This document shows positions 3-62,361 of a stretch of DNA of 64,000 nucleotides, in pieces. The notes beneath the pieces are model-generated. The model saw only the letters and a list, made by a program, of their open reading frames with translations. It searched no databases and had not been told where the DNA came from. Numbering within the stretch: position 1 is the stretch's first letter; every line of letters starts with the position of its first letter. Source of the DNA: a virus. Made by a program: the position numbers and the translations under genes. Location: IMG/VR virus record IMGVR_UViG_3300045977_000235, positions 39,466 through 103,465 of that record; one strand, given 5' to 3'.

Positions 3-725
3 ATGACTGAACAAGAACTACTACCATTCTTATTGTTTAAGTGTCAAGTAGGATCTTACTTGTATGGTTGTAGTATTGATACAAGTGATACTGATTATAT
101 GGGAGTGTTTGTACCACCACTTGATTATACTTTCGGCTTTCAACATATTGAACATGTTGAATGTCGAACGAATCCATCATCTTCTGGCCGAAAAAATATT
201 CAAGAAGATAAAGATTGCATATATTTTACACTTCCTAAATTTATATTTCTTTGTATGAATGCAAGTCCTACATTATTAGAATTATTTTTTGTAAAAGAAT
301 TTGAATATTGTAATGAATATGGGCGATTGTTGTTACAAAATAGATCGTTATTCCTCAGTAAAAAGATCAAACAAACATTTCTTGGATACGTTAAATCACA
401 GCAAGAACAGCTATTCAAGGGTGATGCAATGTTGAATTATTACTACAATCCAAAAGTAGCGTACCATATAGTACGATTACTTGAAGAATGCTATCAACTC
501 TTGCATTATCAGTATATAAACTTTCCTCTTAAAAATGCTGCTGAACTACGAAAAATACGGTTAGGGATGCTTTCATTAAATAATTTAACCGATATAATAG
601 ATAATTATATGACTACAATCAATACAGTAGAAACATATCTTCCTGATGAACCAGATAAGAAAAATTTACAAGACCTTCAGAAGCGTATTATGTGGGACTA
701 TGCAGTAAAAGAGATGGATATATGA
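3..725 (+). CDS. Nucleotidyltransferase (DNA pol beta superfamily, RlaP/Nuc-transf-like)
   Basis: VGSYLYG-x5-SDTDY (GS...DxD) motif; C-terminal YHIVRLL...LRKIRLG...LPDEPD typical of this phage family. Confidence 0.8.
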   Translation: MTEQELLPFLLFKCQVGSYLYGCSIDTSDTDYMGVFVPPLDYTFGFQHIEHVECRTNPSSSGRKNIQEDKDCIYFTLPKFIFLCMNASPTLLELFFVKEFEYCNEYGRLLLQNRSLFLSKKIKQTFLGYVKSQQEQLFKGDAMLNYYYNPKVAYHIVRLLEECYQLLHYQYINFPLKNAAELRKIRLGMLSLNNLTDIIDNYMTTINTVETYLPDEPDKKNLQDLQKRIMWDYAVKEMDI

Positions 726-1108
726 ACAAATATTATCATGCACTCTCCTCTGTAAAAAAGTGGGGAGGTCACATAGACGACTATATGAAGTATCATGCAT
801 TCTTTGATCAAACTAAAAATCATATTGCAGATCAACGACACAGATTGATATTACATAACTCATTCGGTATTGATTTGTTAGAACAGACTTATGGTGTGTA
901 CTTTATTAATAGTGCTGGTAAAGAAGTACCAGTACGTAAAATAGGAGAGCAACATGTACTAGAAGATTTAGGACAAATACCCTCACTCTATGAGTGTTTG
1001 TTACACACTCCAGATCAATCATGGTTAGGTGGAATTATACGACATAGACAGTTAGTAATTGTATCAGATGACATATTTACACATGCATATGAAAAGGAGA
1101 ATCTATGA
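722..1108 (+). CDS. Conserved phage hypothetical protein (DUF6915-like)
   Basis: KWGG..DY..H.FFD.TK...D.RHR..HNSFG...VPVR.IGEQHV.ED.G.IP pattern; ATG at 722 overlaps the upstream stop. Confidence 0.65.
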   Translation: MNKYYHALSSVKKWGGHIDDYMKYHAFFDQTKNHIADQRHRLILHNSFGIDLLEQTYGVYFINSAGKEVPVRKIGEQHVLEDLGQIPSLYECLLHTPDQSWLGGIIRHRQLVIVSDDIFTHAYEKENL

Positions 1109-1491
1109 CTACTATATATATCGTTTCAGAAAAATTGTCAGAATATAATGATGAAGTCTATGTGTTTCATGAAGGTAATCAAGGGAAACCTATCAAAGCC
1201 TATACAAATAGAGAACCAGCAGAAGAATTGTGTTTCACACTAAACTGGCAATGGCTACTTGATAATGCAGATCCAGAGAAAAATGAATATTGCCAGTATG
1301 AATATCGTTTTGAAGATATGTTTTTTGGAAAAGCATGGGACTATCTACAAGACTATGAACTTACACATGAAAGTGATTTAATACGTTTTTCAGCAAAATG
1401 TACAGATTGTATTCCAATGGATGTTAAGAAGTACATTGCAGAACATTCAATTGCACCGTATTTGGTGATGGAGTGTACACTATATGGGTAG
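1105..1491 (+). CDS. Hypothetical protein
   Basis: AAGGAG RBS, ATGA coupling to the previous gene. Confidence 0.6.
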   Translation: MTTIYIVSEKLSEYNDEVYVFHEGNQGKPIKAYTNREPAEELCFTLNWQWLLDNADPEKNEYCQYEYRFEDMFFGKAWDYLQDYELTHESDLIRFSAKCTDCIPMDVKKYIAEHSIAPYLVMECTLYG

Positions 1492-1665
1492 TATGACAGA
1501 GTGGAGTGTGTGTTTGAAGGGTGAAATCTATCTGACCATCCAAGCACGGAGCAAAGAAGAAGCAATCAATTGTGCTTTTAAATGTATCAAGGAAGTACCA
1601 GGATACTTCAAAGTGAGAGAAACATTATGTGAGTCATTAGATTTCAAAGATGATGACGATGATGT

Positions 1666-1989
1666 ATGATCCAATTAAATTATTTAATAAGGAGTCCACC
1701 TATGTTTTTAGGAATACCATTTTTAGAAATATTGTTGATGTTACAAATCAGTTGTATGCCCCCAAATATAGAGGGCAATATGCTGGTGTTCAAAGAGTGT
1801 AGGGCATTGCATCCTGCGGTTATATCGTGTATGACTGTGGGCAACACAGAAGTCATATTTCGACACGATTTAATGATTATGGCCTATGATCCTGAACCTG
1901 GTAATCTCAAAGCTGGCTACTATGAACGTACTTCTCCGGCCACTTGTGAATGGAAATATACAAGCATGGAGAAGAAACAAGATACATAA
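1666..1989 (+). CDS. Hypothetical protein (likely start 1702)
   Basis: TAAGGAG RBS directly after the palindrome at 1674-1688, before ATG at 1702. Confidence 0.5.
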   Translation: MIQLNYLIRSPPMFLGIPFLEILLMLQISCMPPNIEGNMLVFKECRALHPAVISCMTVGNTEVIFRHDLMIMAYDPEPGNLKAGYYERTSPATCEWKYTSMEKKQDT

Positions 1990-2177
1990 TGAAAGGAAAG
2001 AACTATGGAACCAAAAGATGTTGTACCCTATCTTCAGAAGAAAATTGAAAAACTATTCAAAGAACCACCTGCTCTATTGAAGGAACCTTATTTATTCTAT
2101 ACGCTTGCTTCTATCCCATTGTGTATTGTAGGAGGAACACTACTCTATCGTTTACTCTGTAAGAAGAAAGATACCGT

Positions 2178-2504
2178 GTGAAATACACATACCAGTACGT
2201 GTACGTGCTATCATTATTACTCCTGAGTATATTCTTTTCTCCTGTATCTTCTGCTACACTAACATGGACGTATAATGATAATCTTCATGAAGGATTTATC
2301 ATTTTTCGACGACAAGCAGGTACAGGATACATATGGCAAGAAATACAGAGAGTGGATAAAAACACGCTCAAATATGTGGATCAACATAATGATGTGTTGT
2401 ATTGCTACTATGTCAAAGCCTATGCTGGTACACGTATATCAGCACGGAGCAATATAGCATGTATGACGGTAATCAATCCTACAGATTTGGTGATACAAGA
2501 ATAG
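2178..2504 (+). CDS. Secreted single fibronectin type III-like domain protein
   Basis: Signal peptide, then TLTW..N..EGF.I.R...W..I..V..N...YVD...YCYYVKAY...S..SN.AC FN3 pattern. Confidence 0.65.
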   Translation: MKYTYQYVYVLSLLLLSIFFSPVSSATLTWTYNDNLHEGFIIFRRQAGTGYIWQEIQRVDKNTLKYVDQHNDVLYCYYVKAYAGTRISARSNIACMTVINPTDLVIQE

Positions 2505-2570
2505 AGACAAGTTCCTTGTCTCTTAAAAAGAGATAAAATTTCGGGGAACATAATATATATAAAAATAATT

Positions 2571-2602
2571 ATGGAGAGATAAATATATCTCTCCATTTTT
2601 TT
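2571..2602 (+). terminator. Rho-independent terminator ending the + strand block
   Basis: ATGGAGAGATA-aata-TATCTCTCCAT followed by a T-tract. Confidence 0.7.
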
Positions 2603-2639
2603 CTTTGAAAAATTCTAGTGAATAGTGGTATTAAATTAT

Positions 2640-3570
2640 TTAATTTTTAAAATATTTTTACAAAAAATTTTAGAAAATTTTTAGAAAATTTTTAGACAAA
2701 AAACAAATATACACTCGCCCTGACCCCCTCTGTCATTTATTTGACAGACCCCCTGAGCCATAGTCACATAGCTAAACGCCTATGCATCTATCATCTCTTT
2801 TTTATATTAGACCTTAGCTATACATCTATATGGTCCTTCGTTATACATCTAATAAGACCTTAGTTAAGTACCTATATGTTATATAGCTAAGGACCATATA
2901 AGTATATACACATATAGCTAAGGACCGATATGTATACTAAAAGTCTAAAATGAGAATGAGAATCACTATGAGTCCTTAGTTAAACACCTATATATTCTCT
3001 GTATCATAATGATACAGTATTACATATGTATTACATTGTGTATAACATGTATTACATATGTAATATCATCTGATATTATCAGATATATATACTCTTTTAT
3101 CTGATAATAGTACCATGTATTACACCATATAATATATGTAATATATAAATACACTCTACATATTTTACAAAGTAAAAGCTTACATATAGCGTGTTACGTA
3201 TACGTAACATACTAAACGTTTACACAGTACATAATATGTAAACGTTATGATACGTTTACATAATAACGTAAACGTATTGATACATAGTGCATACGTATGC
3301 ATACGTAGTAATATGTAAACGTTATAGTATCTTTATGTTATAAACAACGTTGTTTACGTATACGAAACACCATACACGTATGCATATGGTGTCTTATGTA
3401 AACAACAAAGCACAATACAATACTAAGGTATACATATATGGTGTTATATATACATATGCTTTCATATGAAAGCACTATACTCTATATGTAAACATTATGT
3501 ATCATTCGTTTACTTAGTAAACGTTTACACTCTATATGTATACATATATAGTAATACGTAAACGTTATAG
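2640..3570. repeat. Left non-coding motif array (A-tract repeats, TGTCA-N6-TGACA box, GACCTTAG/CTAAGGAC repeats, GTAAACGTT/TACGTA palindromes)
   Basis: No credible ORF; TAGAAAATTTT tandem at about 2660-2695; box at 2731-2746; AGCTAAGGACC at 2885 and 2916; TGTAAACGTTAT-type repeats at 3235-3570. Confidence 0.7.
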
Positions 3571-4167
3571 GATATATGTCTCTTTTTATCTTCTCTTATT
3601 CTATTATTATCCTCTCTTTATATATTATATAGAGGATAGTATCGTATGTTATGCTCTTATTAGTAGAGCATATATGCTCTCTTATAAAGAGCATAGTGTA
3701 TCTGTAGTACTTATAGAGAAAGAGAGTATTACTATAGAACATAGGCGATTAAATTATTTAATCTGTAGTCTTGTAGTGTGCTCTTATGGTGTAGTAAATA
3801 CGTAGTCTACAATATGCCTCTATAATGCCGTTTTTTATGTATACGTATTGAAAATAAGACGTTTTTTTAATAGGTGAGTATGTTTGTATGTCTTTATTAA
3901 AAAACAAGCTATATGCTCGTATAAGAGCATTATTGACATATACACGTTTTATACAAGATCTGTATAAACCTTATACAAGTCTTATATAAATCTTGTATAA
4001 GACCTATACATAATGACAAATCATTATCAATACATAGCAAAATGAAAGAGCATAAAAACAAGGTGAGTTTACAAAGTAAACTCTACAAGTACATATAGAC
4101 TCTATACAAGAGTCTTGTACTTGCTCTTATGCTCTTATAGCTTTACTTGCTTATTTCATAAGCAAGT

Positions 4168-6371: not shown

Positions 6372-6548
6372 TGTGTGCTCTCTTTCCTTGTAGGATTAAA
6401 TTATTTAATCTGTACTGTGCTCTGTACCGTACTTACTTGTTACGGTACAGAGTATGCTTTTTTCGCTCTACAATGCCTCTATTTTACGTTGTAATGTTTG
6501 CCCTATACTTTCCTATGCTCTCATGAGAGCAATGCACTATAGAGCATT

Positions 6549-7997: not shown

Positions 7998-8224
7998 TGT
8001 TTGCTTTTCCTCTATTTGTCGTTACCGTATACGCAAGTCTGCTCTTTTACTACTTCCATATGCAATGTATGCATTCTCGTTTCATAGTAAATATTCATAT
8101 GCATAATAGCGGCATATGACAGTACTACAAAAAGAGCAAGTACACTTGTCTTGATAGCAAATAGCATTTTGTTTTCCTTGTGTAGTGAGAGCATAGCAAG
8201 CAAGTACTATGCTCTCAGATTAAA

Positions 8225-10246
8225 TTATTTAACCTCTTTATAGAGAATAGCATACATATGTACTGGGATTTGTTTATGATACTTGCGTAACATTTTCAAT
8301 GCCGCAGTAATCTGTTTACTTGTTAGCTTGTCTCTTTCAGCAAGAGATCTGCCAAATTTGCCGTCTAATTTGTTGTATCCTATATCATTCTTCTCTGTAG
8401 CTTGATCCAGGTTTCGATTGTCCAGAAAACGACAAGCAGAAAGTACCGTATCATGGATCTGCTTTGTATACGTTACCTCTTGCACCGTAGTCTGTACCGT
8501 AGTTTTTCCTACTGTGCTCTGCAATACCGTGTTTTTGGTGTCTGGCGTAGTCTGTACTGCGTTTTGTTTCTCTACCTTGCCAGAGTATAGGGTACTTGAT
8601 TTGCTATGCTCAGATTGGCTTGTAGAGCTTTTTTCTCGTATAGGTTTATCCTCTCGTATCGTGACCTTGTTATCAAGTACTGCGTTTATAACACGGTACT
8701 TGTTAATAAAAGCTCTGATAAAAAGATTGTCCAGAGTGTTAGGTATTACAAGGTACTGTGCTAGTACTGCGTTTTTCTGTCCTATACGTAACAGTCTATC
8801 CTCTGCTTGTATGTTCAATAATGGTGACCATTCTGCCTCTACAAAGATTGCAATAGATGATCTAGTAAGCGTAAAGCCTACGCCTATCGCTCCTATAGTG
8901 CCTACAAGTACTACTATTTGTCCATCTTGAAATTGTTCTATAGTCTCTTGTCGTTTCTTAGGTGACACACTACCATCTAAAAAGATAGTATTAAAGTACT
9001 CTGCAATTTTAGCACCAACCTCTTTATGGTGAGTAAAGATTACTAATGGTGTAGTACTGCTCTCTTGTACTACCTTTATATGTTCTATAGCAGGATTAAC
9101 TTTTGCTTTGCCAAGTTTTGCTCTTTCCTCTGCTATATCCTCAAAACTTATCTTGTACTTGCGTAATACTTCTTGAAAAGTATCTGGATCTAGATCTGTT
9201 AATTCCTCTATATTGAAAGGTAAGCTACTATCTTTATATGTCGATTGTAGCTCTATTATTTGCCTTGTCTTTTCTGGCAAATCTTTTAGAACTTCGTCTT
9301 TAGTCCTACGAATCATAATTTTACTGCGTAGTAAGCTCTGCAATTCGGATTCGTTACTACTACCTTTATTATTCCAACCATACCGACCTTGACTAGCAGA
9401 GCAATACCTTTTTTCGTAGTATGATTTGCTATCGAATAGCTTTGCATTATGAACAATCGGCCATAGTTCTATAGGACGATTCAAGACAGGAGATCCTGTC
9501 ATATATAGTACTTGTGTACCATACTCAACAATGCCATTGATAGCAGGTATTGTATTGTATGTTCTGGTAATCGGATCGAATTCCTTATGTTCTGGTTTTC
9601 CTATAATTGCTTTAGTACGTTGTATATCTGGATTCTTTAGTAAATGGGATTCGTCACAGATTACTAGATCCCAAGGATGACAGAGCTTGTCATATAAAGC
9701 TACAGCAAGATCGTAGCTTATGATAACAATACCGCTATCTGCTACTCTGTCAGTACTTCTTGTTACAAGACAATACTTGTGTGCATCTACAAGCCAAGAA
9801 AAAGACTCGTATAACCAGTTAAGCTTGAGACTACTAGGGCAAACAATCAAGATGTCTTGATAACCTTTATAGTTTATCAAGCCAAGAGCTTGAATAGTCT
9901 TACCAATTCCCATGTCGTCAGCAAGTAGACATACTGGCTTGTCAAGCAAGTATTCTATACCTGCTATCTGATACGAGTAGTATTGCTTGTCTGCATTGCA
10001 TGGTACTTGTAGATTGCTTGTAGTAGCATAGGACGCTTTTAAGGTATTGATAAACGGTAGCAGATTGTCTCTTGTTTCCTTGTCTGCATATGCAATTAGA
10101 TGCATAGCATTCGCGGCATTAGTGGTATACCATACCTTTCTGGCATAGTCGAAACGCATATTTGCCTTGTGTGCTAGCATTCTCTCGTTATAGTCGCAAG
10201 TAAAGACATACTCCGAATCTTTCATTGTTAGTATAGGATCTGCCAT
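8225..10246 (-). CDS. SNF2/SWI2-family (HARP/SMARCAL1-like) helicase-ATPase
   Basis: LLADDMGIGKT (I), LVICDESH (II), MTGSPVLNRPIELW (III), GVGFTLT (V), QAEDRLLRIGQ (VI); GAGGT RBS before MADPIL at 10246. Confidence 0.9.
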   Translation of the reverse strand: MADPILTMKDSEYVFTCDYNERMLAHKANMRFDYARKVWYTTNAANAMHLIAYADKETRDNLLPFINTLKASYATTSNLQVPCNADKQYYSYQIAGIEYLLDKPVCLLADDMGIGKTIQALGLINYKGYQDILIVCPSSLKLNWLYESFSWLVDAHKYCLVTRSTDRVADSGIVIISYDLAVALYDKLCHPWDLVICDESHLLKNPDIQRTKAIIGKPEHKEFDPITRTYNTIPAINGIVEYGTQVLYMTGSPVLNRPIELWPIVHNAKLFDSKSYYEKRYCSASQGRYGWNNKGSSNESELQSLLRSKIMIRRTKDEVLKDLPEKTRQIIELQSTYKDSSLPFNIEELTDLDPDTFQEVLRKYKISFEDIAEERAKLGKAKVNPAIEHIKVVQESSTTPLVIFTHHKEVGAKIAEYFNTIFLDGSVSPKKRQETIEQFQDGQIVVLVGTIGAIGVGFTLTRSSIAIFVEAEWSPLLNIQAEDRLLRIGQKNAVLAQYLVIPNTLDNLFIRAFINKYRVINAVLDNKVTIREDKPIREKSSTSQSEHSKSSTLYSGKVEKQNAVQTTPDTKNTVLQSTVGKTTVQTTVQEVTYTKQIHDTVLSACRFLDNRNLDQATEKNDIGYNKLDGKFGRSLAERDKLTSKQITAALKMLRKYHKQIPVHMYAILYKEVK

Positions 10247-10351: not shown

Positions 10352-10723
10352 TTATCGTATCGTTATGTTGCCTGAAATGCTACCTTTCCTCTCTTTCTTA
10401 GGTAGACTTTCTCTTATGATTTGCTCTGTTACCTTTAGACTTGCACCGTACTTTTCTTGTGCTCTGTCTATATCCTCTTGTGACATACTACAGATCTGAT
10501 TAAATAATTTAATCGCTCTATCTTGTGAGCAATTGAGAACGCCACATAAACGAGTAAGAGTATCAATGTTTACTGGCGTTTTTTGGTAGTACGTAGGCAG
10601 ACCAACTATGATGTCACCTTGCAAGTGTAGCGTTTCATCTACTGTATATCTACCAGACTTTAGCTTGAGTGTATCTGGTATCTTGATTGCTTTAATTGCA
10701 GCATATAGTAAGTCTCTTGTCAT
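10352..10723 (-). CDS. Hypothetical protein
   Basis: GAGGT RBS; contains an internal palindrome copy (AIKLFNQ). Confidence 0.55.
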   Translation of the reverse strand: MTRDLLYAAIKAIKIPDTLKLKSGRYTVDETLHLQGDIIVGLPTYYQKTPVNIDTLTRLCGVLNCSQDRAIKLFNQICSMSQEDIDRAQEKYGASLKVTEQIIRESLPKKERKGSISGNITIR

Positions 10724-12768: not shown

Positions 12769-12859
12769 TGCTTCTATATCCTTGTGAGTAGTGAGAGCAT
12801 AACACTATGCTATGCTCTCTTGATTAAATTATTTAATCCCTAGCAGATGGACAGTAGTT

Positions 12860-15619: not shown

Positions 15620-15649
15620 ATTGTAACAAGTTTATCGGAATTAAAGCAA
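15620..15649 (-). promoter_or_regulatory. Possible sigma70 promoter facing the early block
   Basis: TTGCTT-18-TACAAT on the - strand. Confidence 0.35.
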
Positions 15650-49217: not shown

Positions 49218-51791
49218 TCACCCACAGAGAGAAGTTAAACATTGTGTGCATCTTTTACATCCTTCTTGATACACCATTTGTCCACCACATTCTTTACATA
49301 AAGATCCAGCAGATACACCATCTGTTACAAAATCTTTTAATAGTCGTATGACTCCATTTCTCCATGTGTGAATTGAATCACCATCTAATCGTAACTTCTC
49401 TAACACAGATATAACATAGTTGGTCGGCATTTGATGCCTTAATAATCCACTAATTAGGCGTGCATAATTTCCGTAGATATTCTCCCCAAGGTTATTAAGT
49501 AACAATGACCGTTGTTCAATATCTGAACTGTAGGAAAGCCAATATTGATTGTGTCTGTTTGCTTCTTTTATTTTCACAATGATAGAAGGTTTATGAACAT
49601 CTATAGGCATTGATTCAGGAAATTCACCAGCAAACAATTCATACGGTTGATCATTTTTTAATCCTATAACACCTAACCATTTCTTTCCTTCATTCCAAAA
49701 GGTAGATAATTTTCCTGGTAAAATCTCTGGACGTTTTTCAAAGGCAACAGATTTTTGTTTCTTATGTATGTCTACGAGCACTCCTGTACGAGAATTAGCC
49801 CTATAAATTGTGACACCTTTTAATCCTAATGCCCATGATTGAAGGTAAATATCTGCTACCTGTTGTTCTGATACATTTTCGGGGAGATTCAATGTAGAAG
49901 AAATAGCAGATGTCGTATAGTGTTGTACCATAGATTGTATGCGGATTCTATTGTAGGAGCTAATTTCTTCTGCACACGATTTGTGCCACGGTGAAAATAC
50001 ATATAAATATTCTAAATTTTTTTCTGTTAAATTATTTAATTCATATGTATGTAAATAATCATATGTTTGTATAATCCATTTTTTGAACTGTGGATGGAGT
50101 ACAAAATATTCTTGCCATTTATCCCCATTTTGATCTATAAAATCTTCATGTTCATGTTCTATTTTTCTTCGGCGCACATAATACGGTTTAAATAATGGTT
50201 CTATACCTGATGTTGTTCCAGTAAGTATTGACACTGAACCTGTAGGAGCTACACAACTCCAGTTGACGTTTCTTCTCCCATGCATTTGTAGATGTTTTAT
50301 TAACCAAGGATATTCTTTCCGTATCATTTCATAGAATGAATTGCGGCCTTGAAGGTTATCATCAAACTCTAATTCAAAATTAAAAAACTCAAAAGGTCCA
50401 CGTTCTTTTGCAAGGGTTATAGACGTATCTAACTCCACTCGCATTTTTATATACATGATTTTTTCAGTTAATTCTAATGCAGCTAAAGATCCATATGGTA
50501 AACCTAATGCTGCAAACATATCCCCTAATCCTGTTAAACCACATCCACATCGTCTACCATTGATTGCTTGTTCTTTTATACGTTTCCATAAACGTAATTC
50601 ACAATCTTTCAAATAATCAGGACCAGGATCATTGATAATTTTGTTGATGATTTTATCTACAGCTTCTATTTCTAAATCAACTAAATCATCACCTAAGCGT
50701 AATTGTAAACCTGCTAATTGTTCTAACCGTTGAAAATTAAATGTTGCTTGTGCAGTAAATGGACGATCAACACATTTTAACAAGTTCAACACAATGAGTC
50801 TACAGGTATCACCTACAGCTTGTGGTATTTCTCCACACGCATTTGTACTCACAGGTTTCAATGAAGGATACACACTAGCTGGATCATAGTCTACCATTCT
50901 ATCCCATAGAAACAATCCTGGTTCACTATGTTCTCTTGCATTTTTAATAATAAGATCCCATAACTCTTTTGCTCGGATTCTTTTAATGTATCCGAATGAT
51001 GTAGGTTCAAGCACGTTATATGGTGCAATTCGTATTTTATCCCCTTCATCATTCATATCATGTTCATAGAAATTATAATCACTAGGGTATCGTAACACAT
51101 AATCTGTATCATGCTGTACAGCATGAATAAAATCATCACGTATCTTAATGCTAATGTTTGCGCCAGTAATTTTTGTTCTGTCATTCTTTACGGTGACAAA
51201 ATCATAAATATCAGGATGCCGTACATCTAAAGAAATTAAACACGCTCCCCTACGTCCTTCTTGAGCACATTCACGTGTACTATTCGAGAAACGTTCCATA
51301 AATGAGACTGCACCTGTAGATGTTTGTGCAGCATTATTAACTGTTGATCCTTTTGGCCTGAGAAAAGAAATATCTAAACCATATCCCATTCGTCTTTTTG
51401 CTGACTGTACGACTTGTTGATCAAGATCTAAGATCCCTGCATAGGAATCCGTATCAACACCAAGTACAGTGCAATTGCTAAGAGAAACCACCGTAAAATC
51501 ATTACCAGCACCATACATTACACTCCCTTGTGGAATGATACTCCAATCAGTAAAAAAGGATAAAATAGATTCTTCACTTATAGGATTAGGATATTTTAAT
51601 TCGATACGGGCAAATTCACGTGCAAGTCGTTGATGCATCATCAATGGAGAATTTTCTAAAAACTGTCCTTCCTTATTTCGTAGTGCATATTTGTTCATCC
51701 ATACTTCAGAAGCAAGTACGTCCTGATTAAAATATTTAATCGTTTCACTATATACTTCGTCACGACTATACATTGAAATCCTTTCCTTCAA
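49218..51791 (-). CDS. nrdJ: Ribonucleotide reductase, probably class II (B12-dependent)
   Basis: SLSNC; GRRGA....L...HPD; EPG; STNACGE; R..G.G..G; APTGSVS; KGVTIYR..SR; C-terminal C..CG....QEGC..C..C; no small subunit gene in the window. Confidence 0.85.
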   Translation of the reverse strand: MKERISMYSRDEVYSETIKYFNQDVLASEVWMNKYALRNKEGQFLENSPLMMHQRLAREFARIELKYPNPISEESILSFFTDWSIIPQGSVMYGAGNDFTVVSLSNCTVLGVDTDSYAGILDLDQQVVQSAKRRMGYGLDISFLRPKGSTVNNAAQTSTGAVSFMERFSNSTRECAQEGRRGACLISLDVRHPDIYDFVTVKNDRTKITGANISIKIRDDFIHAVQHDTDYVLRYPSDYNFYEHDMNDEGDKIRIAPYNVLEPTSFGYIKRIRAKELWDLIIKNAREHSEPGLFLWDRMVDYDPASVYPSLKPVSTNACGEIPQAVGDTCRLIVLNLLKCVDRPFTAQATFNFQRLEQLAGLQLRLGDDLVDLEIEAVDKIINKIINDPGPDYLKDCELRLWKRIKEQAINGRRCGCGLTGLGDMFAALGLPYGSLAALELTEKIMYIKMRVELDTSITLAKERGPFEFFNFELEFDDNLQGRNSFYEMIRKEYPWLIKHLQMHGRRNVNWSCVAPTGSVSILTGTTSGIEPLFKPYYVRRRKIEHEHEDFIDQNGDKWQEYFVLHPQFKKWIIQTYDYLHTYELNNLTEKNLEYLYVFSPWHKSCAEEISSYNRIRIQSMVQHYTTSAISSTLNLPENVSEQQVADIYLQSWALGLKGVTIYRANSRTGVLVDIHKKQKSVAFEKRPEILPGKLSTFWNEGKKWLGVIGLKNDQPYELFAGEFPESMPIDVHKPSIIVKIKEANRHNQYWLSYSSDIEQRSLLLNNLGENIYGNYARLISGLLRHQMPTNYVISVLEKLRLDGDSIHTWRNGVIRLLKDFVTDGVSAGSLCKECGGQMVYQEGCKRCTQCLTSLCG

Positions 51792-53107: not shown

Positions 53108-53418
53108 TATATTCTCCTAATTAAATTATTTAATAAATGCGTACTGCATGTCTTTCTACAGATTTTCCTTGGATATATTGTCTATGCCATAATTCTACCC
53201 CTTGAGGCCATACAGTCTTAGTGACTGTTAGTATAGTGTAAGGCATTCGTTTATTCATTTCAAGCATGATATTATGTACAATATCTTCTCGTACATTAAT
53301 TATCCATATTTCTTGTTCTTTTAATATTGCATGGCCTTTAAAATATTGTTGAGCAAGAAACATTATATCAGGTGTCATAGGCAATGGAAGTATGACGTAT
53401 TTAACAAAAGGTGTCAAT

Positions 53419-53982: not shown

Positions 53983-54314
53983 AATGTTTATCCTTCATTA
54001 AATTATTTAATTGACGAGTTCTACTGTGGGCTGTGATACAGCAGCTTGTGGTACTGGTTGAGTACCTTGTTGTGCTGCTTGTTCTTCTTCTTTCTTTGTT
54101 TTAAAATGTTCTAACAAAGCCATGACATCTTCAGCTTTTTCTGGTAGAGCCATGACCAATGGTGTACGACTGATATGCTTGATACCCAAAAACAAATACA
54201 CAACATCACACAAATCTACTGCTTCTCTCCGTTCTGCACCTGTCAACCAACCCAATACAAAAGTACCTACCAGTGTTGTAATATCATTCGCCATATATAG
54301 ATCTCCTTATTTTA

Positions 54315-55136: not shown

Positions 55137-55472
55137 TCAATCAGTATCCCTTAAATAATTTAATATCTCCAAAATATCATCTATTGTAGGGAGAAGATCT
55201 TGTATCTTCTCCCATATCCTTATTAAAAATTTAATAGTCCACCAGGAGTATCTTTAGGTTCATCTAACCATTCATCATAAATACGTATAATTTTACAGTC
55301 ATACATATCTATTTGATTCTCTGAATCACGTATACCAAAAACAATTGTATCACCACTACAACGATATGAAAATTCATGAGGATACTTTGAACGTGTCAAA
55401 TCATCATATACTTGTTGTGCCCATACGTCTCTATTTTTTTCAGGAATCTCTACACCTACAAAATGATCCATT

Positions 55473-55814: not shown

Positions 55815-56817
55815 AGTGTGTTTGTCCTGCTTCTATAAGCTGTTGTTGTACGTAACATTTCCATTCAGAATCGTTTACAATATCATCTTTCAAGGCTTTT
55901 TGTGAATTATATTCTCTCCCTAAGCATATCGTAGTTGTTCCTAACTTCCCTAACAGATTGAACGACTTCAAATATTTCAACATCAAATCTGCATCATCAT
56001 TCTTCCCTGCTTTAATAGATCCATTATTCAACAAACCAATCTCAAATTCAATGTGATTTAACACAGTTTTCATTTTACTTTTTTTAACTGTTAAATTCAC
56101 TTGATGCTTTGATGCAATATTCGGATTGACTTCTTTATAGATTACTGGTTTTCCTGATATACGTAAATTCAATGAAGGTGCATGTTCTACCATAGCTCCA
56201 CCAGGAGCATACTCAGGATTACCATACATCACACCTATCTTTTGTCGTACTTGATTGATACACAACAAAGTAGGATAATAGTCCTTTTTACTTTGTTCTA
56301 ATTGTGCGTGTATAGCTTTTCGGAGAATTTTTGTAATGATACCTGAAGAACCAGCAACTATTTGCTTATCTCCATACGATTCTATTTCATTTGTTGTAAT
56401 GATTGCTCCTAGCGAATCAATCACACCAAAATCAATATCATCACAATTCATCAATCCATCTACTATATCAACAATCTGCTCTCCATTAGCAGGTTGAAAC
56501 ACCATTAAATTATTTAATTCGATACCTAATGAAGTAGCCCAATTCACATCAAAGGTATTTTCAGTATCTACATAAAAACATTTCTTCCCTGTGCGCTGTA
56601 ATTCTCCTGTAATTGACAACGCTAAAGTTGTTTTCGCAGAATCTTTCGGACCATAGACATGTGTAATTTTCCCCAACGGAATACCACCACCTAACATAAA
56701 ATCAATGGGGAAAATTCCAGAGGATAACTTTTCCCCTTCTTTCAGTTCACTACCCATTGAATATATTTTCTCTCCATGATGCTTTTTTAAAAATTTCAGT
56801 ATGTCATCAGAAACCAA
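55798..56817 (-). CDS. recA: RecA/UvsX-like recombinase
   Basis: SSG...D..LGGGIP.G.I...YGP..S.KTT; D.E..FD; VIDS; INQ.R.KIGVMYGNPE..PGG. Confidence 0.92.
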   Translation of the reverse strand: MVSDDILKFLKKHHGEKIYSMGSELKEGEKLSSGIFPIDFMLGGGIPLGKITHVYGPKDSAKTTLALSITGELQRTGKKCFYVDTENTFDVNWATSLGIELNNLMVFQPANGEQIVDIVDGLMNCDDIDFGVIDSLGAIITTNEIESYGDKQIVAGSSGIITKILRKAIHAQLEQSKKDYYPTLLCINQVRQKIGVMYGNPEYAPGGAMVEHAPSLNLRISGKPVIYKEVNPNIASKHQVNLTVKKSKMKTVLNHIEFEIGLLNNGSIKAGKNDDADLMLKYLKSFNLLGKLGTTTICLGREYNSQKALKDDIVNDSEWKCYVQQQLIEAGQTHFVEEE

Positions 56818-56911: not shown

Positions 56912-57922
56912 CTACCACTCTAATGTTTCTTCTTCCATATCAATAGTTACTTCTTCTTGTTGTACTGTGGCGACTTTACCTCCTTTCTGTTGTGGCTTTA
57001 CATTATTCGTAGACTTGTACCCTATACCGAGTTCAAGCAATTGCTCTGGAGTATATACAAACAAATCTTCATCATAGTTTGCAGGAGAAAAATTATACTC
57101 CTTTCCACAGATCTTTTTCAACTCTGCAAGAGAACGTTTACCCATAAAGGTAAAGACATCACCTACTCTTGGTGCTTTGTCTTTCTTACTACGTCCAATG
57201 TTCACTAATTGTCCTTTTAGTGAACCCCCGAATTTCTTAGCACGCATAAACAATTCTTCACGTGTGCCACTGGTTGCAATGAACAATTGCTTCTGGTTCT
57301 CATAGACAACTGAAGGATCTTTTCTGGATTGAATAGGCGTATGATTAATAATGGTAAAGACACAAACATACGTCCCTTTTGCACCAGAATTACATGCAGG
57401 ACAATCACCATGCTTTCTTTTAGGACATTGAAAAGAAAGCCATGTTGTTCCTGTCTGTACGGTATGTTGTAGATAGAAAGGAACATCAAATAACTCTACA
57501 CCATCTTCAGTTACAACATCACCATCTAAAAACGTAACATCTCTTTCTTCACCTACAGGAATCCAAAAAGGCCATAATTGAGTAGCTGTGACTTCTCCAT
57601 TTGCCTTTTTGTCTGCTGCTGCTTTTTGATTTTTCTGGATCTGAGCCATTTCTTTTGCAGAAATTAAATTTGCCATATGTTTCTTCTCTTGTTTAATCGG
57701 TTGTACAGGGAGGTATATTACAGTATTTTTCTCACCTATAGCACTGTCTTTCTCCTTTATTTGAGGCATCTTATACAACGTATACGTTTTTTTATGAAAT
57801 GAATCTAAATGTTTAAACTTTCCTTCTTTTAAATAATTTAATAAAGAAGCTGTTAATACTGTTCCATCTGGCAACGTGTATGTACATTCCTCTGGATTGT
57901 ATGTAACGGAGAAGTGCTGCAT
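56912..57922 (-). CDS. Probable single-stranded DNA-binding protein (core may start at 57676)
   Basis: Between primase and recA; H...C......CPAC Zn motif; acidic aromatic tail DMEEETLEW. Confidence 0.6.
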   Translation of the reverse strand: MQHFSVTYNPEECTYTLPDGTVLTASLLNYLKEGKFKHLDSFHKKTYTLYKMPQIKEKDSAIGEKNTVIYLPVQPIKQEKKHMANLISAKEMAQIQKNQKAAADKKANGEVTATQLWPFWIPVGEERDVTFLDGDVVTEDGVELFDVPFYLQHTVQTGTTWLSFQCPKRKHGDCPACNSGAKGTYVCVFTIINHTPIQSRKDPSVVYENQKQLFIATSGTREELFMRAKKFGGSLKGQLVNIGRSKKDKAPRVGDVFTFMGKRSLAELKKICGKEYNFSPANYDEDLFVYTPEQLLELGIGYKSTNNVKPQQKGGKVATVQQEEVTIDMEEETLEW

Positions 57923-57971: not shown

Positions 57972-58817
57972 CTACCACAATAATTCTTTCTGGAAAACTT
58001 GTTCCAATGTCTCTACACTTGCGTCACCTGGATCTTTAATTTCTCCTGGTAAACGTAAGTGTCGTACATTATTCTTTCCAAAGTAATTCGATACTTTCCT
58101 TCTGGCATTATCACCAGCAACGTCATTATCGTACAATGTAAACACATATGGAGTAGTATGAATACGTTTCAGTTTTGTATGTGTGAGTTGAGATCCTAAT
58201 GATGCAAGTACGTTAGATTTTACTTCATATACACGTGCAGCATCAAATAGTCCTTCAACTAATATAACTGGTTCATTCAAATCTACCCAATGTTCCCCTA
58301 ACCATATGTGACCATTTGATTCACCATACCAAGGATACACAAAATACTTTGGTAGTGAAATAAGAGAACGTCCTACAAAACCTACTAACTTCCCTACAAA
58401 ATTCCGTATAGGAACTCCTATACGATGTTTAGAACTATCATATCGAAAATCAAATAGTATCCGTATATCTGCTCGTACTTTCCTTTTGTCTAAATAAGGA
58501 TGGGTATAGTTTCTTTTCAATGTTTTTAGAAAATGTTCTGGATATATTATATCTTCTTTTTCTTGTTGTGGGCTTTCAATTAATGTTGTACTTGGTTCAA
58601 CGTGATAATTAAATAATTTAATCACATCTCCATTTTCCCCACACGTGAAACAATTATACCGTCCACTTGTTGAAATACCGAAGGAGAAATGGGTATCTGT
58701 TCCATGTGCATGTTTTTCTTTTGCCCAAGGGCAAGAGAGATTTACCCATTTCCCCGATACTTTGTATGAACCTAATTCTTTTTCTTTGATTAGTTCTATG
58801 ATGGTTGCTATTTCCAT
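57972..58817 (-). CDS. DNA primase (Zn finger plus TOPRIM)
   Basis: CPW...H...CFTCG..G; G..GR; LVEG.FDA; YDND.AG; KDPG. Confidence 0.88.
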   Translation of the reverse strand: MEIATIIELIKEKELGSYKVSGKWVNLSCPWAKEKHAHGTDTHFSFGISTSGRYNCFTCGENGDVIKLFNYHVEPSTTLIESPQQEKEDIIYPEHFLKTLKRNYTHPYLDKRKVRADIRILFDFRYDSSKHRIGVPIRNFVGKLVGFVGRSLISLPKYFVYPWYGESNGHIWLGEHWVDLNEPVILVEGLFDAARVYEVKSNVLASLGSQLTHTKLKRIHTTPYVFTLYDNDVAGDNARRKVSNYFGKNNVRHLRLPGEIKDPGDASVETLEQVFQKELLW

Positions 58818-60037: not shown

Positions 60038-60052
60038 TTATCCATCTCCTGA

Positions 60053-60562
60053 TTAAATTATTTTATAGTTGTTCAACAGATAATTGTACAGATCTTTTGG
60101 ATAGATTTGTTGGAACCTCATTTTATCTTGTATATCAACTACACAATGAAAAGGAGGATTATATAGATATTGTATTATCTGTGATTTTATATTAACATCT
60201 ATATGTTCTAACCCATATAAAAATACAATCTGTGGTTGTGTATCATTTTCAAAAAGAGCAACAAGAGTATAAGGATTTACTAATCTTGCATCAATAAGAT
60301 ACCGTATGAGTATCCCTATCATATATGAAAAACGTTCTATAGGATCTACAAGATCATATAATATTCCTTTTTTTCCTTCGGGCAAAGAATAGGATTGTGT
60401 TTGGTAATTAAATAAATAATTAATTATCCATACAAAATCTTCTTCTGTACAATATTCCTTGGCCGAATTTAAAATATAATAAGGAGAGATGTTTGCTAAT
60501 CGTGCATATTTTTCCACATTTTGTACGATCTTTTGTTGAATGGGATTTTGGAATGACATCAT
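60053..60562 (-). CDS. Hypothetical protein (possible degenerate helicase loader)
   Basis: First gene after a promoter, directly upstream of the helicase; AGGAGG RBS. Confidence 0.45.
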   Translation of the reverse strand: MMSFQNPIQQKIVQNVEKYARLANISPYYILNSAKEYCTEEDFVWIINYLFNYQTQSYSLPEGKKGILYDLVDPIERFSYMIGILIRYLIDARLVNPYTLVALFENDTQPQIVFLYGLEHIDVNIKSQIIQYLYNPPFHCVVDIQDKMRFQQIYPKDLYNYLLNNYKII

Positions 60563-61020: not shown

Positions 61021-61050
61021 ATATTCACCTTTTCATCATAAACCTCATTG

Positions 61051-61077
61051 AAAGGGCATTCAGAAATGCCCTTTTTT
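61051..61077. terminator. Rho-independent terminator-like hairpin
   Basis: AAAGGGCATT-caga-AATGCCCTTT-TTT. Confidence 0.65.
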
Positions 61078-61145
61078 GTGTTAGTATATGAAATTCTAGC
61101 CACTTTTTTCCTAAACATGATAAATCATACTAGGCATTAAATAAT

Positions 61146-61706
61146 TTAATAGTGAAGGCATACACCAGGACAATATGGTACTGTCGCATCTGCTATTGCT
61201 TGAAGAACATTCGTGAGTGGCACATAAACAACCTGTGACTCTATTTTTCCTTGTATAGTGGCTGTTTCTAATTCTTCTTCAAGTTTATATTGTAATAAAC
61301 TAAAAAATTCTCGAAAACGTTGTTCTCGATACATTTCCATTTTTGTCCATACAATTTTTCTCCACATGAGATTTCGTATGTCTGTTACTAATCCTATTTC
61401 TGTTGGGCTAGTAACTCGTTGTGCTCTACGAACTTCAGTATATAAAATATGAGCAAATTCTCTGTTTATTCTCAAATACTGAGATGTTGTTTGTGTAATA
61501 ACATTCTCTACTAAACTATCAACACTAACACGTGCAACTGGTGGATTCTCTTGAACTGTTGGAACAGTTGTAACAACAGGAGCAGTTGGAGTAGTAGGAG
61601 TCTTAGAAGAAGCATCAGGAGTAGCAATAACAGTTCGTGTGCATCCACTTAGAGCTAAACCTAAACACAAAATAACTACTGCAACACTTACACCTAACAT
61701 TTTCAT
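61146..61706 (-). CDS. Lipoprotein
   Basis: Signal peptide with LSGC lipobox; Thr/Pro linker. Confidence 0.65.
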   Translation of the reverse strand: MKMLGVSVAVVILCLGLALSGCTRTVIATPDASSKTPTTPTAPVVTTVPTVQENPPVARVSVDSLVENVITQTTSQYLRINREFAHILYTEVRRAQRVTSPTEIGLVTDIRNLMWRKIVWTKMEMYREQRFREFFSLLQYKLEEELETATIQGKIESQVVYVPLTNVLQAIADATVPYCPGVCLHY

Positions 61707-61736
61707 AATTCACCTTTCGATTAAATTATTTAATAA

Positions 61737-61755
61737 GCGGGGGATAAACCCCCGC
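61737..61755 (-). terminator. Hairpin abutting a palindrome copy
   Basis: GCGGGG...CCCCGC directly beside the 61720-61734 palindrome. Confidence 0.55.
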
Positions 61756-61762
61756 ATTCTAC

Positions 61763-62257
61763 TTAGTTAGACCAAAGCACTACAGTTGAATCATCAAGAC
61801 GCCAAACATCATCAGTTGCATCATTACAATTCACAAGATTTGCATTCACTTGGGCGGTATGTAAACCTGGTTCTGGCACCACAACAACACCTGTTGCCGA
61901 AGCACTTACCCATCCATTAATATCATTGACTCCACGTGATGTACAAAATGCATTATCTGTTGTTTGTGTTGGAGAAACTTGTACTCCATCCACAACCAAA
62001 TCAATATTCAACCAGGAAAAATTATCTGGTGATTTAACAGAACATTCTCCTGTATACCCAAAAACAACACGTTGATAATCACGTGTGGTAACAAAACGCA
62101 ATGTGTGTAAATTAACAACAGGTACACACGATGCTGCGCCTACACCTACTTGAACTGCTGTTGTACTTGTTCTGGTTGCAATGACATCAGCAAAAGACAC
62201 TTGAGCAAACAAGAGACATGAAAGAATCGTTCCAATACTTATCATCCATTTTTTCAT
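61763..62257 (-). CDS. Exported beta-rich protein
   Basis: AAGGAG RBS; MKKW...VSFA signal peptide. Confidence 0.6.
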   Translation of the reverse strand: MKKWMISIGTILSCLLFAQVSFADVIATRTSTTAVQVGVGAASCVPVVNLHTLRFVTTRDYQRVVFGYTGECSVKSPDNFSWLNIDLVVDGVQVSPTQTTDNAFCTSRGVNDINGWVSASATGVVVVPEPGLHTAQVNANLVNCNDATDDVWRLDDSTVVLWSN

Positions 62258-62361
62258 AAAAACTCCTTTAATATAATTCTTACACAATTAAATAATTTAA
62301 TCCCTATGCCTAATTCCCTCTGAAATCTGTCCTCTCCTTTCATTTCATGATTAATCATTTC

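Follow-up and report, generated by a model that had tools for sequence, protein, structure and literature searches.

A 15-base palindrome repeated across a phage chromosome, with an orphan ParB-family protein as its candidate reader

The window analysed here is a stretch of 64 kb from the 103-kb record of an uncultured, tailed phage, whose gene blocks are one-stranded over 30-60 kb. Its genes for RecA, primase (Toprim plus zinc ribbon), RNR and PolA, named as such in the original prediction, were recovered by Pfam or tblastn, and so were two DSP-type phosphatases; an "RNA ligase" (463-aa ORF) was weakly supported, with E 3.6e-4, below the cut-off. An exact 15-base all-A/T palindrome, ATTAAATWATTTAAT, recurs about every 1.5 kb over the entire phage chromosome, the RecA, primase and polymerase genes included. 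There are 36 exact copies in the window, all at the places first reported, and 52 in the record. When up to one mismatch is allowed the record has 68 copies; the essential core is TTAAATWATTTAA, and the 13-bp core occurs 64 times. The "about 12 near copies" noticed before are 11 with one mismatch and four with two, which gives 51 copies in the window at up to two mismatches against 2.2 expected. In 11 of 16 imperfect sites it is the outermost base that carries the mismatch. Could such numbers arise by chance? Base composition predicts 0.018 copies per 103 kb, in agreement with an earlier estimate of about 0.01 per window, and 100 dinucleotide shuffles of the window gave no exact copy at all. 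Codon-preserving shuffles averaged 2.4 copies and reached 7 at most, far below the 52 exact copies of the record.

Where do the sites lie relative to genes? About half of them fill intergenic spacers: 37 of 80 spacers of at least 15 nt hold a site, compared with 0 of 84 shorter ones. For 25 of the 68 sites the centre falls 17-39 nt 5' of a start codon (p 2e-14), and at 21 junctions it falls 17-27 nt upstream. Fourteen sites supply the TAA stop codon of the upstream gene, and many junction sites abut GGAG or AGGAG with a gap of 0-4 nt. For example, the upstream stop codon is held by the exact junction sites at 19583..19597 (abutting AGGAG), 22330..22344 (GGAG), 27573..27587 (extended to 19 bp as GT-core-AC, 27571-27589), 32410..32424 (AAGGAG), 33519..33533 (the polA stop, abutting AAGGGGAG), 53120..53134 (TAGGAG) and 53997..54011, by another exact site at 61136..61150, and by two sites with one mismatch, 8219..8233 (the SNF2 helicase stop, followed by a GAGAGCATAG hairpin) and 60052..60066 (junction 5' of the DnaB-like helicase gene). 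The overlaps with stop codon or ribosome binding site described earlier at 8219, 19583, 22330, 32410, 33519, 53120 and 53997 are all among these. Further exact sites lead directly into AAGGAG and ATG at a junction of plus-strand genes (1674..1688), abut GGAG at a junction (22012..22026), precede AGGAG and ATG between genes (24073..24087), or fall within the final codons of a DNA methylase gene, with the next start codon 12 nt further on (20283..20297). Terminator-like hairpins directly precede the exact junction sites 21049..21063 (11 nt to a methylase start codon) and 61720..61734 (13 nt to a start codon), and a hairpin also stands before the junction site 55150..55164, which has one mismatch at the outer base. 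An exact site at a gene end (41111..41125) is followed by a hairpin, and an exact intergenic one (43577..43591) by a hairpin and a start codon. Two intergenic sites lie 26 nt (27145..27159, one mismatch) and 29 nt (62287..62301, exact) 5' of start codons. Two sites lie 3-4 nt past the -10 box of near-consensus sigma-70-type promoters; one of them, the exact site 49081..49095, is 4 nt 3' of the -10 box of a promoter-like TTGACA-17-TATACT (-35 at 49128, minus strand) and 15 nt 5' of a start codon.

About 25 sites lie deep within genes and are conserved there. The motif encodes IKLFN or LN[NY]L in the frames read before, and it is the motif that underlies 8 of 8 IKLFN and 20 of 22 LN[NY]L peptides. 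IKLFN is encoded by exact sites in the primase gene (58608..58622), in one phosphatase ORF (36421..36435), at a junction of overlapping genes, 12 nt into the other (38035..38049), and in ORF 10352-10723 (10499..10513). LNNL is encoded by exact sites in recA (56504..56518) and ORF 45638-46300 (45738..45752), and by sites with one mismatch at the outer base in an RlaP-like ORF, 3-725 (575..589), and the RNR large subunit gene (50026..50040). LNYL is encoded by an exact site in the 463-aa ORF (47956..47970) and by sites with one mismatch in polA (35233..35247) and, at the outer base, in a P-loop kinase ORF (30728..30742). Other sites lie at the 5' end of the RNR gene (51726..51740, one mismatch), in a 336-aa ORF (57828..57842, one mismatch at the outer base) and 14 nt in from the 5' end of ORF 24662-25057 (25029..25043, exact). 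In an alignment with E. coli RecA, the recA site encodes LNNL at the position of the conserved IDNL, without any indel.

One relative was found, with 78% nucleotide identity and 33 core copies in 69 kb; its contig ends before the parB region, and the comparison covers 32 aligned sites. Of these, 24 differ by at most one base, compared with 21.6% of control AT-rich 15-mers, and the primase site is identical. Divergence is 9.4% within sites and 25.9% in their flanks. By this comparison the sites are under purifying selection at orthologous positions. It is the DNA, and not the encoded protein, that selection targets, as the original prediction had argued from the use of several frames; the codon shuffle, the mapping of peptides to the motif and the conservation in the relative all bear this out.

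Is the site read with a direction? Only the full palindrome is enriched; the half-sites, for which enrichment was also looked for, showed none. On the coding strand of junction sites the central base is A in about 19 cases and T in about 11 (tallied by hand, with p about 0.2 as a hand estimate), the site flanks are not asymmetric, and the central T is flipped to A in 2 of 25 sites conserved in the relative. The central base (W) having no clear orientation bias, this argues for a symmetric protein dimer that reads the palindrome as double-stranded DNA, in keeping with the dimeric reader proposed earlier. Stoperators are asymmetric, oriented sites, and for that reason a strict stoperator reading of this symmetric palindrome fails.

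The same observations bear on two explanations at the level of gene expression. One would make the motif a promoter or start element of an RNA polymerase redirected by the phage in its middle or late phase, like the T4 late TATAAATA boxes. The tight distance to start codons at 21 junctions would suit it, and so would the two sites directly after terminator-like hairpins; after masking, no other over-represented word fit for a phage promoter was found, and TTAAATA resembles T4-type late boxes. However, a perfect palindrome would fire both ways in one-stranded gene blocks, neither its central base nor its flanks give it an orientation, and the conserved sites deep within ORFs are out of place. 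Where spacers are long, the start codon stands anywhere from 9 to about 140 nt away, therefore the tight spacing at junctions reflects compaction. Searches for a sigma factor or a phage RNA polymerase found none, and neither sigma-70 region 2 nor an integrase turned up in six-frame scans. We thus regard a promoter element as improbable. The other explanation places the function in RNA, as an intercistronic cassette combining a two-frame TAA with an A/U-rich ribosome stand-by site or enhancer by the Shine-Dalgarno sequence, or as the target of a translational repressor or RNase. When its central base on the coding strand is A, the motif does give TAA in two frames, and the 14 upstream stops and the abutting GGAG or AGGAG speak for such a cassette. 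But an RNA function would be strand-specific and need no dyad symmetry, exactness over 13-15 nt goes beyond the need of A/U-rich enhancers, arms of 7 nt around a 1-nt centre make a hairpin impossible, a non-coding stretch of 3 kb holds six sites away from start codons, and the conserved sites inside ORFs again do not fit. This explanation is very unlikely.

The sites are also more regularly spaced than random, with a coefficient of variation (CV) of 0.67-0.71 and p between 0.0008 and 0.006 under three null models. They are spread along the whole genome. Even spacing and location at gene boundaries might also mark a cis site for other DNA transactions, such as a nickase or endonuclease target, a junction for recombination or module exchange, or a priming or packaging signal, and the phage encodes RecA, RuvC-like, PD-(D/E)XK and GIY-YIG-like proteins. 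Against this, orthologous sites are conserved in the collinear relative, where no rearrangement breakpoints or indels were seen at sites, no insertion family accompanies them, and nicking at a palindrome would cut both strands. We hold such a role to be highly doubtful.

Then which protein might read the palindrome? An orphan ParB-family gene of 452 aa lies at 11410..12768 on the minus strand, and was identified by Pfam, PDB sequence and AF2/Foldseek searches. The protein retains the NPR, GHRR and N206 boxes, and its layout is NPR121, GHRR164, a helix-turn-helix (HTH) at 210-283 and an RGRP321 AT-hook. Pfam detects HTH_ParB (7e-13) and KorB (9.5e-5) and does not detect the N-domain with its ParB_N model; the NCBIfam models Noc and parB_part match N-domain and HTH with scores below their cut-offs, and the PDB sequence matches are Spo0J and Noc. 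The AF2 model has a pLDDT of 93.7, and its top Foldseek matches are all ParB, Noc or KorB (KorB 8qa9, TMq 0.65). The RGRP AT-hook is conserved in the closest homologues and would suit an all-A/T site. No ParA partner was found.

The sites around this gene have a form of their own. In the island around parB the palindrome takes the form GATTAAATWATTTAATC, and the G...C extension is present in 9 of 9 exact sites there compared with 4 of 43 elsewhere (p 2e-7). Exact sites of this 17-bp form lie in the non-coding left flank of the island (3748..3762), between genes after a strong hairpin (6395..6409), in the ORF at 10499, 54 nt 5' of the parB start codon and followed by a hairpin (12823..12837), and 18 nt 5' of a start codon (14668..14682); another exact site (2630..2644) marks the left edge of an array of non-coding repeats that flanks the island. 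Sites cluster most densely 2-5 kb from parB, in a mostly non-coding stretch with iteron-like repeats (14700..17650). This cluster comprises a 23-bp palindrome, GCGG-core-CCGC at 15685-15707, around the exact site 15689..15703 (this and the 19-bp extension above had both been reported), three exact sites of the 17-bp form (16369..16383, 16525..16539 and 16589..16603), one site with a mismatch beside a TGTCAAAATTTTGACA box (16752..16766) and an exact site at 17636..17650. Both the 17-bp form particular to the island and the cluster by parB point to ParB as the candidate reader.

The palindrome copies are most likely docking sites of the phage's own partner-less ParB/KorB-type clamp. On the model of KorB, Noc and ParB, dimers would load at each of roughly 68 sites and close into a nucleotide-gated clamp, presumably with use of CTP, which would slide about one kilobase from the site. 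With a site every 1.5 kb, sliding of this extent would cover the entire phage chromosome; KorB slides up to 1.5 kb away from its operator (PMC11790492). Clamps at sites that abut promoters or fill spacers would gate transcription in a KorB-like manner, and the even tiling would mark or compact the phage DNA. That the orphan ParB does all this, as clamp, cover, gate and mark, is a tentative proposal that we rate slightly short of an even chance. Transcriptional control is probably part of the function and not a mere alternative, because the sites are tied to junctions and two abut -10 boxes. The genome-wide, DNA-level and symmetric site of the original prediction holds, while its tie to gene junctions had been under-weighted. 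The junction bias (25 of 68, p 2e-14) is also compatible with a purely transcriptional element and counts against the ParB reading.

Might the reader be another dimeric regulator, with ParB unrelated? A host factor that has a 7-1-7 box, or some small protein of the phage, could use the sites as a dispersed operator, for a global transcriptional switch or roadblock like stoperators or P1 C1 operators. The occupied spacers and the two sites overlapping the start region of sigma-70-type promoters would agree with this, and another reader could be hidden, as about half of some 165 ORFs lack a recognisable family. Yet ParB is the sole site-specific DNA-binding protein recognised in the phage: Pfam and PHROGs scans of about 90 proteins revealed no second such domain, and six-frame scans gave only an HTH_3 match, weak and sub-threshold, in the ORF of the terminase small subunit. 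Operators are not expected at even spacing or at conserved sites deep inside genes, the island points to ParB, and the motif is not known to match the Fur, PerR, Zur or CodY boxes, which share its layout. Such a regulator is a possible but rather unlikely reader.

Other phages bear on both this regulator and the ParB clamp. Agrobacterium phages Milano and 7-7-1 encode ParBs 30-33% identical to the present one, and carry TACAAATnATTTGTA in 7 and 5 copies, respectively, a palindrome with the 7-1-7 layout and inner AAATnATTT of ATTAAATWATTTAAT. The recognition helix of all three ParBs contains a Trp and the helix after it ATxAQ, two features missing in four other phage ParBs compared. The palindrome of Milano and 7-7-1 occupies a promoter spacer, and may there be read by another factor than ParB. 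In cultured phages with ParB homologues the sites are either absent or limited to a few, embedded in promoters or clustered, and the lattice was never found among them. The nearest published case is that of the Cluster O mycobacteriophages, whose 17-bp dyad repeat, without an assigned reader, is comparable to the present palindrome and would also be in line with a regulator other than ParB (PMC4351075).

The all-A/T word ATTAAATWATTTAAT occurs 36 times exactly in the window, whereas 100 dinucleotide shuffles contained none, and with up to two mismatches there are 51 copies in the window against 2.2 expected. Over the whole record of 103,465 bp (G+C 34%), of which the window is bases 39466-103465, the counts rise to 52 exact copies and 68 with at most one mismatch, and the 13-bp core occurs 64 times. 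All coordinates and reading frames quoted in the original prediction of a genome-wide palindrome were verified. The mismatch spectrum is sharp, with 52, 16, 7 and 35 windows at 0, 1, 2 and 3 mismatches, and where there is a single mismatch it affects the outermost base in 11 of 16 cases, so that the essential word is TTAAATWATTTAA. No other word is comparably over-represented in the genome, masked or unmasked. Half-sites stand at the Markov expectation (94 against 81); thus only the full dyad is selected, and half-site binding was dropped. The flanks show only a symmetric preference for G(-1)/C(+1). Is the site read in one orientation? At junction sites, the central base on the coding strand is A in about 19 and T in about 11 cases by hand tally (p about 0.2, an estimate), which is no clear orientation bias, and the site is read symmetrically. 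With 7-nt arms and a single central base, it cannot form a hairpin.

The word was further predicted to be under selection as DNA and not as protein. When synonymous codons were permuted within each gene, leaving the proteins unchanged, a mean of 2.4 exact copies and a maximum of 7 were obtained, against the 52 observed. The mapping of peptides to the motif agrees with this: all eight IKLFN pentapeptides in the proteome and 20 of its 22 LN[NY]L tetrapeptides are spelled by the motif or its core, and exist because the DNA word encodes them. The third frame of the motif gives a TAA stop, and 14 sites supply the stop codon of the upstream gene. Selection on the DNA is thereby supported. An alignment of RecA, proposed earlier as a way to see residues changed to fit the site, has LNNL in place of the IDNL of E. 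coli RecA, with no indel, within the conserved stretch LGxxxxNLxxSQPxxGEQ.

Conservation in related phages had also been expected, and it was found in the one relative that turned up in all collections searched, a 69-kb IMG/VR contig (UViG 3300045955_000166) recovered by a PolA search of IMG/VR. This contig, which is without the parB region, is collinear with the phage and 78% identical over 60 kb, and it carries 17 exact copies, 40 with at most one mismatch and 33 copies of the core. Where sites lie in long alignments, 24 of 32 differ by no more than one base in the relative, compared with 21.6% of 561 control AT-rich 15-mers. Per base, the sites diverge by 9.4% and their 30-nt flanks by 25.9%. 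Sites within primase and other genes are among those retained, and two of the 25 conserved sites have the central T and A exchanged, which a degenerate centre would predict. Searches of viral contigs with the SNF2 helicase and with ParB (single sequence and alignment) gave no relative, and ParB and PolA alignments against metagenome contigs gave no useful match. The 15-mer in viral contigs and the 17-mer in GTDB genomes were almost only single-copy among the matches listed, with one viral contig holding two, and among these listed matches no host or prophage relative was identified.

Where do the sites lie with respect to genes? About 55% are at junctions or in non-coding DNA and about 35-40%, roughly a third, within ORFs, around 25 of them well inside. 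A start codon follows at 17-39 nt for the centres of 25 of the 68 sites, which is true of 5.7% of random positions (p 2e-14). Sites are absent from all 84 junctions with a gap shorter than 15 nt and present in 37 of the 80 whose gap is longer. In compact junctions little besides the motif, a Shine-Dalgarno sequence and a few bases makes up the spacer, and the tight distance from site to start follows from this compactness; in long spacers the distance runs from 9 to about 140 nt. Near-consensus sigma-70 promoters precede two sites, whose distance from the -10 box is 3-4 nt. The first promoter (TTGACA-17-TATAAT, genome position 32552) lies in the divergent region that separates the late from the nucleotide-metabolism operons; the second is TTGACA-17-TATACT at window position 49128. 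Terminator-like hairpins before a site, or 5' hairpins after it, were seen at a minority of sites only, and a uniform hairpin or terminator architecture was dropped. Could the palindrome then be itself a promoter, an RNA-level cassette or a site of some DNA transaction? All three are opposed by its palindromic symmetry, by the conservation of sites within genes and by the densest group of sites, which has six of them in 3 kb of non-coding DNA 2-5 kb from the gene of a ParB-family protein. We consider it unlikely that the word is a promoter, and highly improbable that it is either an RNA-level cassette or a DNA-transaction site. A T4-type late promoter is an asymmetric -10-like box oriented with the gene and served by a dedicated sigma-like factor. 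This type was rejected, the site being symmetric and without clear orientation bias, and sigma-70 region 2 not being detected.

The spacing of the sites, which was to be checked for regularity, is more even than chance under all three null models (uniform, gene-start and mixed; p 0.0008-0.006), with a coefficient of variation of 0.71 for exact sites and 0.67 for sites with at most one mismatch. Even spacing, together with sites in long genes, suggests that coverage itself matters.

Which protein would read such a site? The candidate is an orphan ParB-family protein of 452 aa (window 11410-12768, minus strand). It has the central helix-turn-helix of the ParB/KorB/Noc family, with Pfam matches to HTH_ParB at 7.2e-13 (49 bits; cut-off 22.6) and to the KorB domain at 9.5e-5 (22.7 bits; cut-off 22.3), and it matched Spo0J and Noc in a phmmer search against the PDB. 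The NCBIfam models Noc and parB_part align over the N-domain plus the helix-turn-helix with scores below their cut-offs, the best being Noc with 46 bits against a cut-off of 315. An exhaustive search gave 319 ParB-sized relatives at E <=1e-10, all of them aligning to residues 95-300. The AF2 model of these residues has a pLDDT of 93.7, and its Foldseek matches are exclusively ParB-CDP, Noc, KorB and ParB-parS structures, the top ones covering both domains; the best global match is a KorB chain (TMq 0.65). Of the motif boxes, NPR121 and GHRR164 were located, and the third keeps its conserved Asn, in SNQGK. Model, structural matches and boxes together give the ParB/Srx nucleotide-binding fold. 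The Pfam ParB_N model does not match the N-domain, which is therefore divergent. Binding and hydrolysis of CTP, and closure of a clamp at the cognate palindrome, would be expected of a member of this family; the motif residues were checked for them.

Outside the folded region, an N-terminal arm (residues 1-95) carries three QEDTA(T/L) repeats with K/T-rich spacers, and a second arm (residues 300-390), rich in Ser, Thr, Asn and Pro, surrounds an RGRP AT-hook. This AT-hook, at residue 321, is conserved in the nearest homologues and would suit an all-A/T site. Low-complexity arms are unusual for a ParB, and multivalent or condensate-like behaviour could result from them. No KGGxGK[ST] Walker box of a ParA was found in the called ORFs of the record, which may be incomplete, and the ParA-binding motif [LFI]G[KR]G[LFI] was not found in ParB. 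A ParABS partition system was rejected, as it requires a ParA and, in ParB, a ParA-binding motif of the LG[KR]GL type.

Circumstantial evidence points to the parB product as the putative reader of the palindrome. One site is 54 nt 5' of the parB start codon, the six-site cluster is near, and the 17-bp form GATTAAATWATTTAATC is taken by all nine exact sites of the island around parB and by 4 of the 43 elsewhere (p 2e-7). Another regulator, one that we did not recognise, might read the site instead. Our gene coordinates come from ORF-based calling and are approximate, and for roughly half of the ORFs the family is not recognisable. No other site-specific DNA-binding domain was detected in about 90 proteins by Pfam or PHROGs and in six-frame scans, where an HTH_3 scan gave only a weak, sub-threshold match to the ORF of the terminase small subunit (E 0.03). 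The palindrome presumably matches none of the host 7-1-7 boxes Fur, PerR, Zur and CodY. We regard such a second reader as doubtful, though worth keeping in mind beside ParB.

ParB-family clamps serve as centromere binders in ParABS, as the division-site guard Noc and as the plasmid silencer KorB. Noc of Bacillus subtilis has its palindrome, NBS, at about 70 chromosomal places. Like the phage protein it has no partner; this ParB paralogue reads a scattered palindrome and spreads from it, and the phage ParB has its best NCBIfam match, and some of its best PDB matches, in Noc. However, Noc anchors DNA at the membrane by an N-terminal amphipathic helix to block cell division, a role that nothing here suggests, and NBS is an even-length, GC-centred palindrome, whereas the phage site is odd-length and all A/T.

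The IncP-1 plasmid RK2 has about a dozen KorB operators (OB), against about 68 sites in the phage. As in the phage, they are dispersed over the replicon, at promoters and at distant places, and KorB slides about 1.5 kb to silence. The operator TTTAGCSGCTAAA and the TTAAATWATTTAA of the phage are unrelated in sequence, although both are odd-length palindromes with a degenerate centre. RK2 is a plasmid and keeps its sites intergenic; here the replicon is a virulent-type siphophage, and about a third of its sites are within coding sequence. KorB has as partners IncC, which is a ParA, and the clamp-locker KorA, neither of which was found in the phage, and unlike KorB the phage ParB has long low-complexity arms and an AT-hook. 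What the two proteins share is the fold of a ParB CTP clamp and the helix-turn-helix (PMC11790492, PMC13768133). KorB loads at its operator, closes on CTP, slides for up to 1.5 kb and occludes promoters (PMC11790492). Orphan ParBs are common on phages and mobile elements, where they are unexplained (PMC12704722). In 5mYOX systems, a Tet/JBP dioxygenase adjoins a ParB that has no DNA-binding domain (PMC13229309). A target of ParB-dependent thymine dioxygenation or hypermodification was rejected, because a six-frame scan of the phage gave no Tet_JBP match and its ParB has a helix-turn-helix.

We found no description of a ParB lattice, that is, of sites spread along the whole genome at about one per 1.5 kb, for a lytic phage in the literature searched. 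Is there any precedent among other phage repeats? The stoperators of Cluster A mycobacteriophages (L5 gp71) are short exact sites in 20-30 copies, located in short intergenic spaces, which silence transcription globally. Stoperator-like control was one of the roles first suggested for the palindrome. As a strict, temperate stoperator system it did not hold, since the site is a perfect palindrome with no clear orientation bias and the genome has no detectable integrase or resolvase; many sites are also intragenic. Stoperators are summarised in the literature as asymmetric, oriented with transcription and read by the immunity repressor of a temperate phage (PMC4351075). Closer in pattern are the Cluster O mycobacteriophages (Corndog), whose genomes of about 70 kb each have more than 30 copies of a 17-bp dyad repeat, TGTTCGGNNNCCGAACA, many of them intergenic and about a third coding (PMC4351075). 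In the authors' prediction, the repeat is bound by a dimeric protein that does something other than control promoters (PMC4351075). These are the only genome-wide phage dyad repeats published in the literature searched (PMC4351075). The present palindrome shows the same features of more than 30 copies (52-68), in intergenic and coding DNA, kept in the relative. The Cluster O repeat is 7-3-7 and GC-rich whereas the phage site is 7-1-7 and all A/T, and host and phage lineage differ as well. Cluster O is a precedent for the pattern and not an explanation.

Do other phages with such a ParB have a lattice? Homologues of this type are present in 49 phage records (tblastn), and six of these genomes were scanned for over-represented palindromes. 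Among Agrobacterium phages, Milano has the word TACAAATnATTTGTA seven times and 7-7-1 has it five times, confined to one region of about 12 kb in each (42972-54409 in Milano, 27273-39108 in 7-7-1). Every copy has a TTGAC -35 box on one side and a TAnnnT -10 box on the other, which makes them promoter-spacer operators, in contrast to the genome-wide lattice of the phage. They form a promoter family TTGACnnn-TACAAATnATTTGTA-TAnnnT of 5-7 members downstream of a ParB/Noc-like gene. The word resembles the phage site in being 15 bp long, 7-1-7, and identical in the inner AAATnATTT. The ParBs of Milano and 7-7-1 are 30-33% identical to that of the phage and share with the ParBs of its lineage a Trp in the recognition helix and ATxAQ in the next helix, both absent from the other four ParBs in the alignment. 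Judged from sequence, in a small sample where the reader in Milano and 7-7-1 is itself putative, this likeness suggests a specificity shared with the phage ParB. In Bacteroides phage Versailles, eight TTTGCCTAAGCAAA repeats are clustered within 400 bp (TTTGC(C/T)TA(A/G)GCAAA, 1573-1960), 13 kb from its ParB-like gene, and look like a possible centromere or iteron array. The remaining three genomes had nothing striking. With a few promoter palindromes in two of six, a cluster in one and none in three, a general link between phage ParB homologues and a lattice was rejected; cultured phages with a ParB do not in general have a lattice.

What might the lattice do? A symmetric dimer, most likely the phage ParB, would bind each palindrome. 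If it behaved as KorB does, a site every 1.5 kb would let the clamps cover the entire chromosome, and sites at promoters and in spacers might gate transcription; all steps from binding onward are argued by analogy. We therefore put forward, as a tentative scenario only, that a virulent-type phage coats its whole chromosome with a partner-less ParB clamp from about 70 even sites, kept even in essential genes, as a viral chromatin or condensate that times expression and marks phage against host DNA. If so, the mark could serve, for instance, replication or packaging factories or the shielding from host nucleases, and the Cluster O repeats would be an instance of the same widespread, undescribed phage strategy. 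The genome offers a clean candidate pair: a single orphan ParB that bears an AT-hook, and a single exact palindrome kept at about 68 positions. What the lattice costs can be seen in the codons and residues of RecA, primase, RNR and PolA, which are bent to fit. Were the pairing true, a lytic-type phage would have its entire chromosome tiled with sites for clamp loading, a function would be at hand for the long-unexplained dyad repeats of Cluster O, and an orthogonal all-A/T ParB-site pair would be available for tools. Even with another reader, the lattice would be, to our knowledge, among the densest conserved site arrays in a phage.

The island around parB (14 kb, window 2640-17650) has a G+C of 0.36-0.38 against 0.32-0.34 and also contains an SNF2-family helicase gene (window 8225-10246). 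It is flanked by non-coding repeat arrays of 1.5 kb and 3 kb sharing words almost absent elsewhere (ATATGTATA, ATGTAAACG and ACGTATACG), and TGTCA-N6-TGACA boxes are also present in the flanks, where no DnaA-box clusters were found. As to its nature, the island may hold an origin or a centromere, may be an end of the genome or may be a segment that is injected first. No sigma-70-like promoters were seen ahead of its genes. Related hairpins GAGAGCATAG...CTATGCTCTC of about -18 to -20 kcal/mol (window 8186-8217, 12793-12819 and others) lie between the palindrome and the next Shine-Dalgarno sequence of island genes and have no U-tract.

As for the phage as a whole, the structural module identified by PHROGs and Pfam is of siphovirus type and lies on the minus strand (terminase, portal, protease, major head protein, tape measure, a J-like central fibre and long fibres). 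The plus strand holds a nucleotide-metabolism block. A long minus-strand replication block encodes a DnaB-like helicase, primase, RecA, RNR, ThyX, dCTP deaminase, PolA and three DNA methylases. Of the methyltransferase genes (window 20267-21037, 23044-23817 and 51766-52503), two are of N6_N4 type and one belongs to the D12/Dam class. Integrase, resolvase, sigma-70 region 2 and tRNA were looked for in the phage genome and not detected. Cultured phages are distant relatives only, with PolA identity of at most 37%, and megablast of 8 kb of the phage against them gave no match. Record positions 1-940 and 102526-103465 (window 63061-64000), which are both contig ends, are paralogous tail-fibre gene segments 78% identical to each other, and the contig of the relative continues straight across the junction of the two ends. 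Rather than being 76% complete, the record is thus probably a circularly permuted genome that is almost complete and was broken within a repeat.

Some further genes were noted. Upstream of polA, a module (window 35793-40781) encodes a 603-aa PPDK_N plus PEP-utilizer protein in which no C-terminal barrel is recognisable, two DSP-type phosphatases (SAK-like), a 312-aa protein of no known kind and a P-loop kinase. A circularly permuted YpsA/SLOG-family protein (window 28514-29077; Pfam cpYpsA 2e-28) is found among small early-type genes. Upstream of the window, about five paralogous genes of about 194-216 aa each stand in a row in the tail module (record positions 11818-15039), with palindrome sites at both ends of the run (11808 and 15052).
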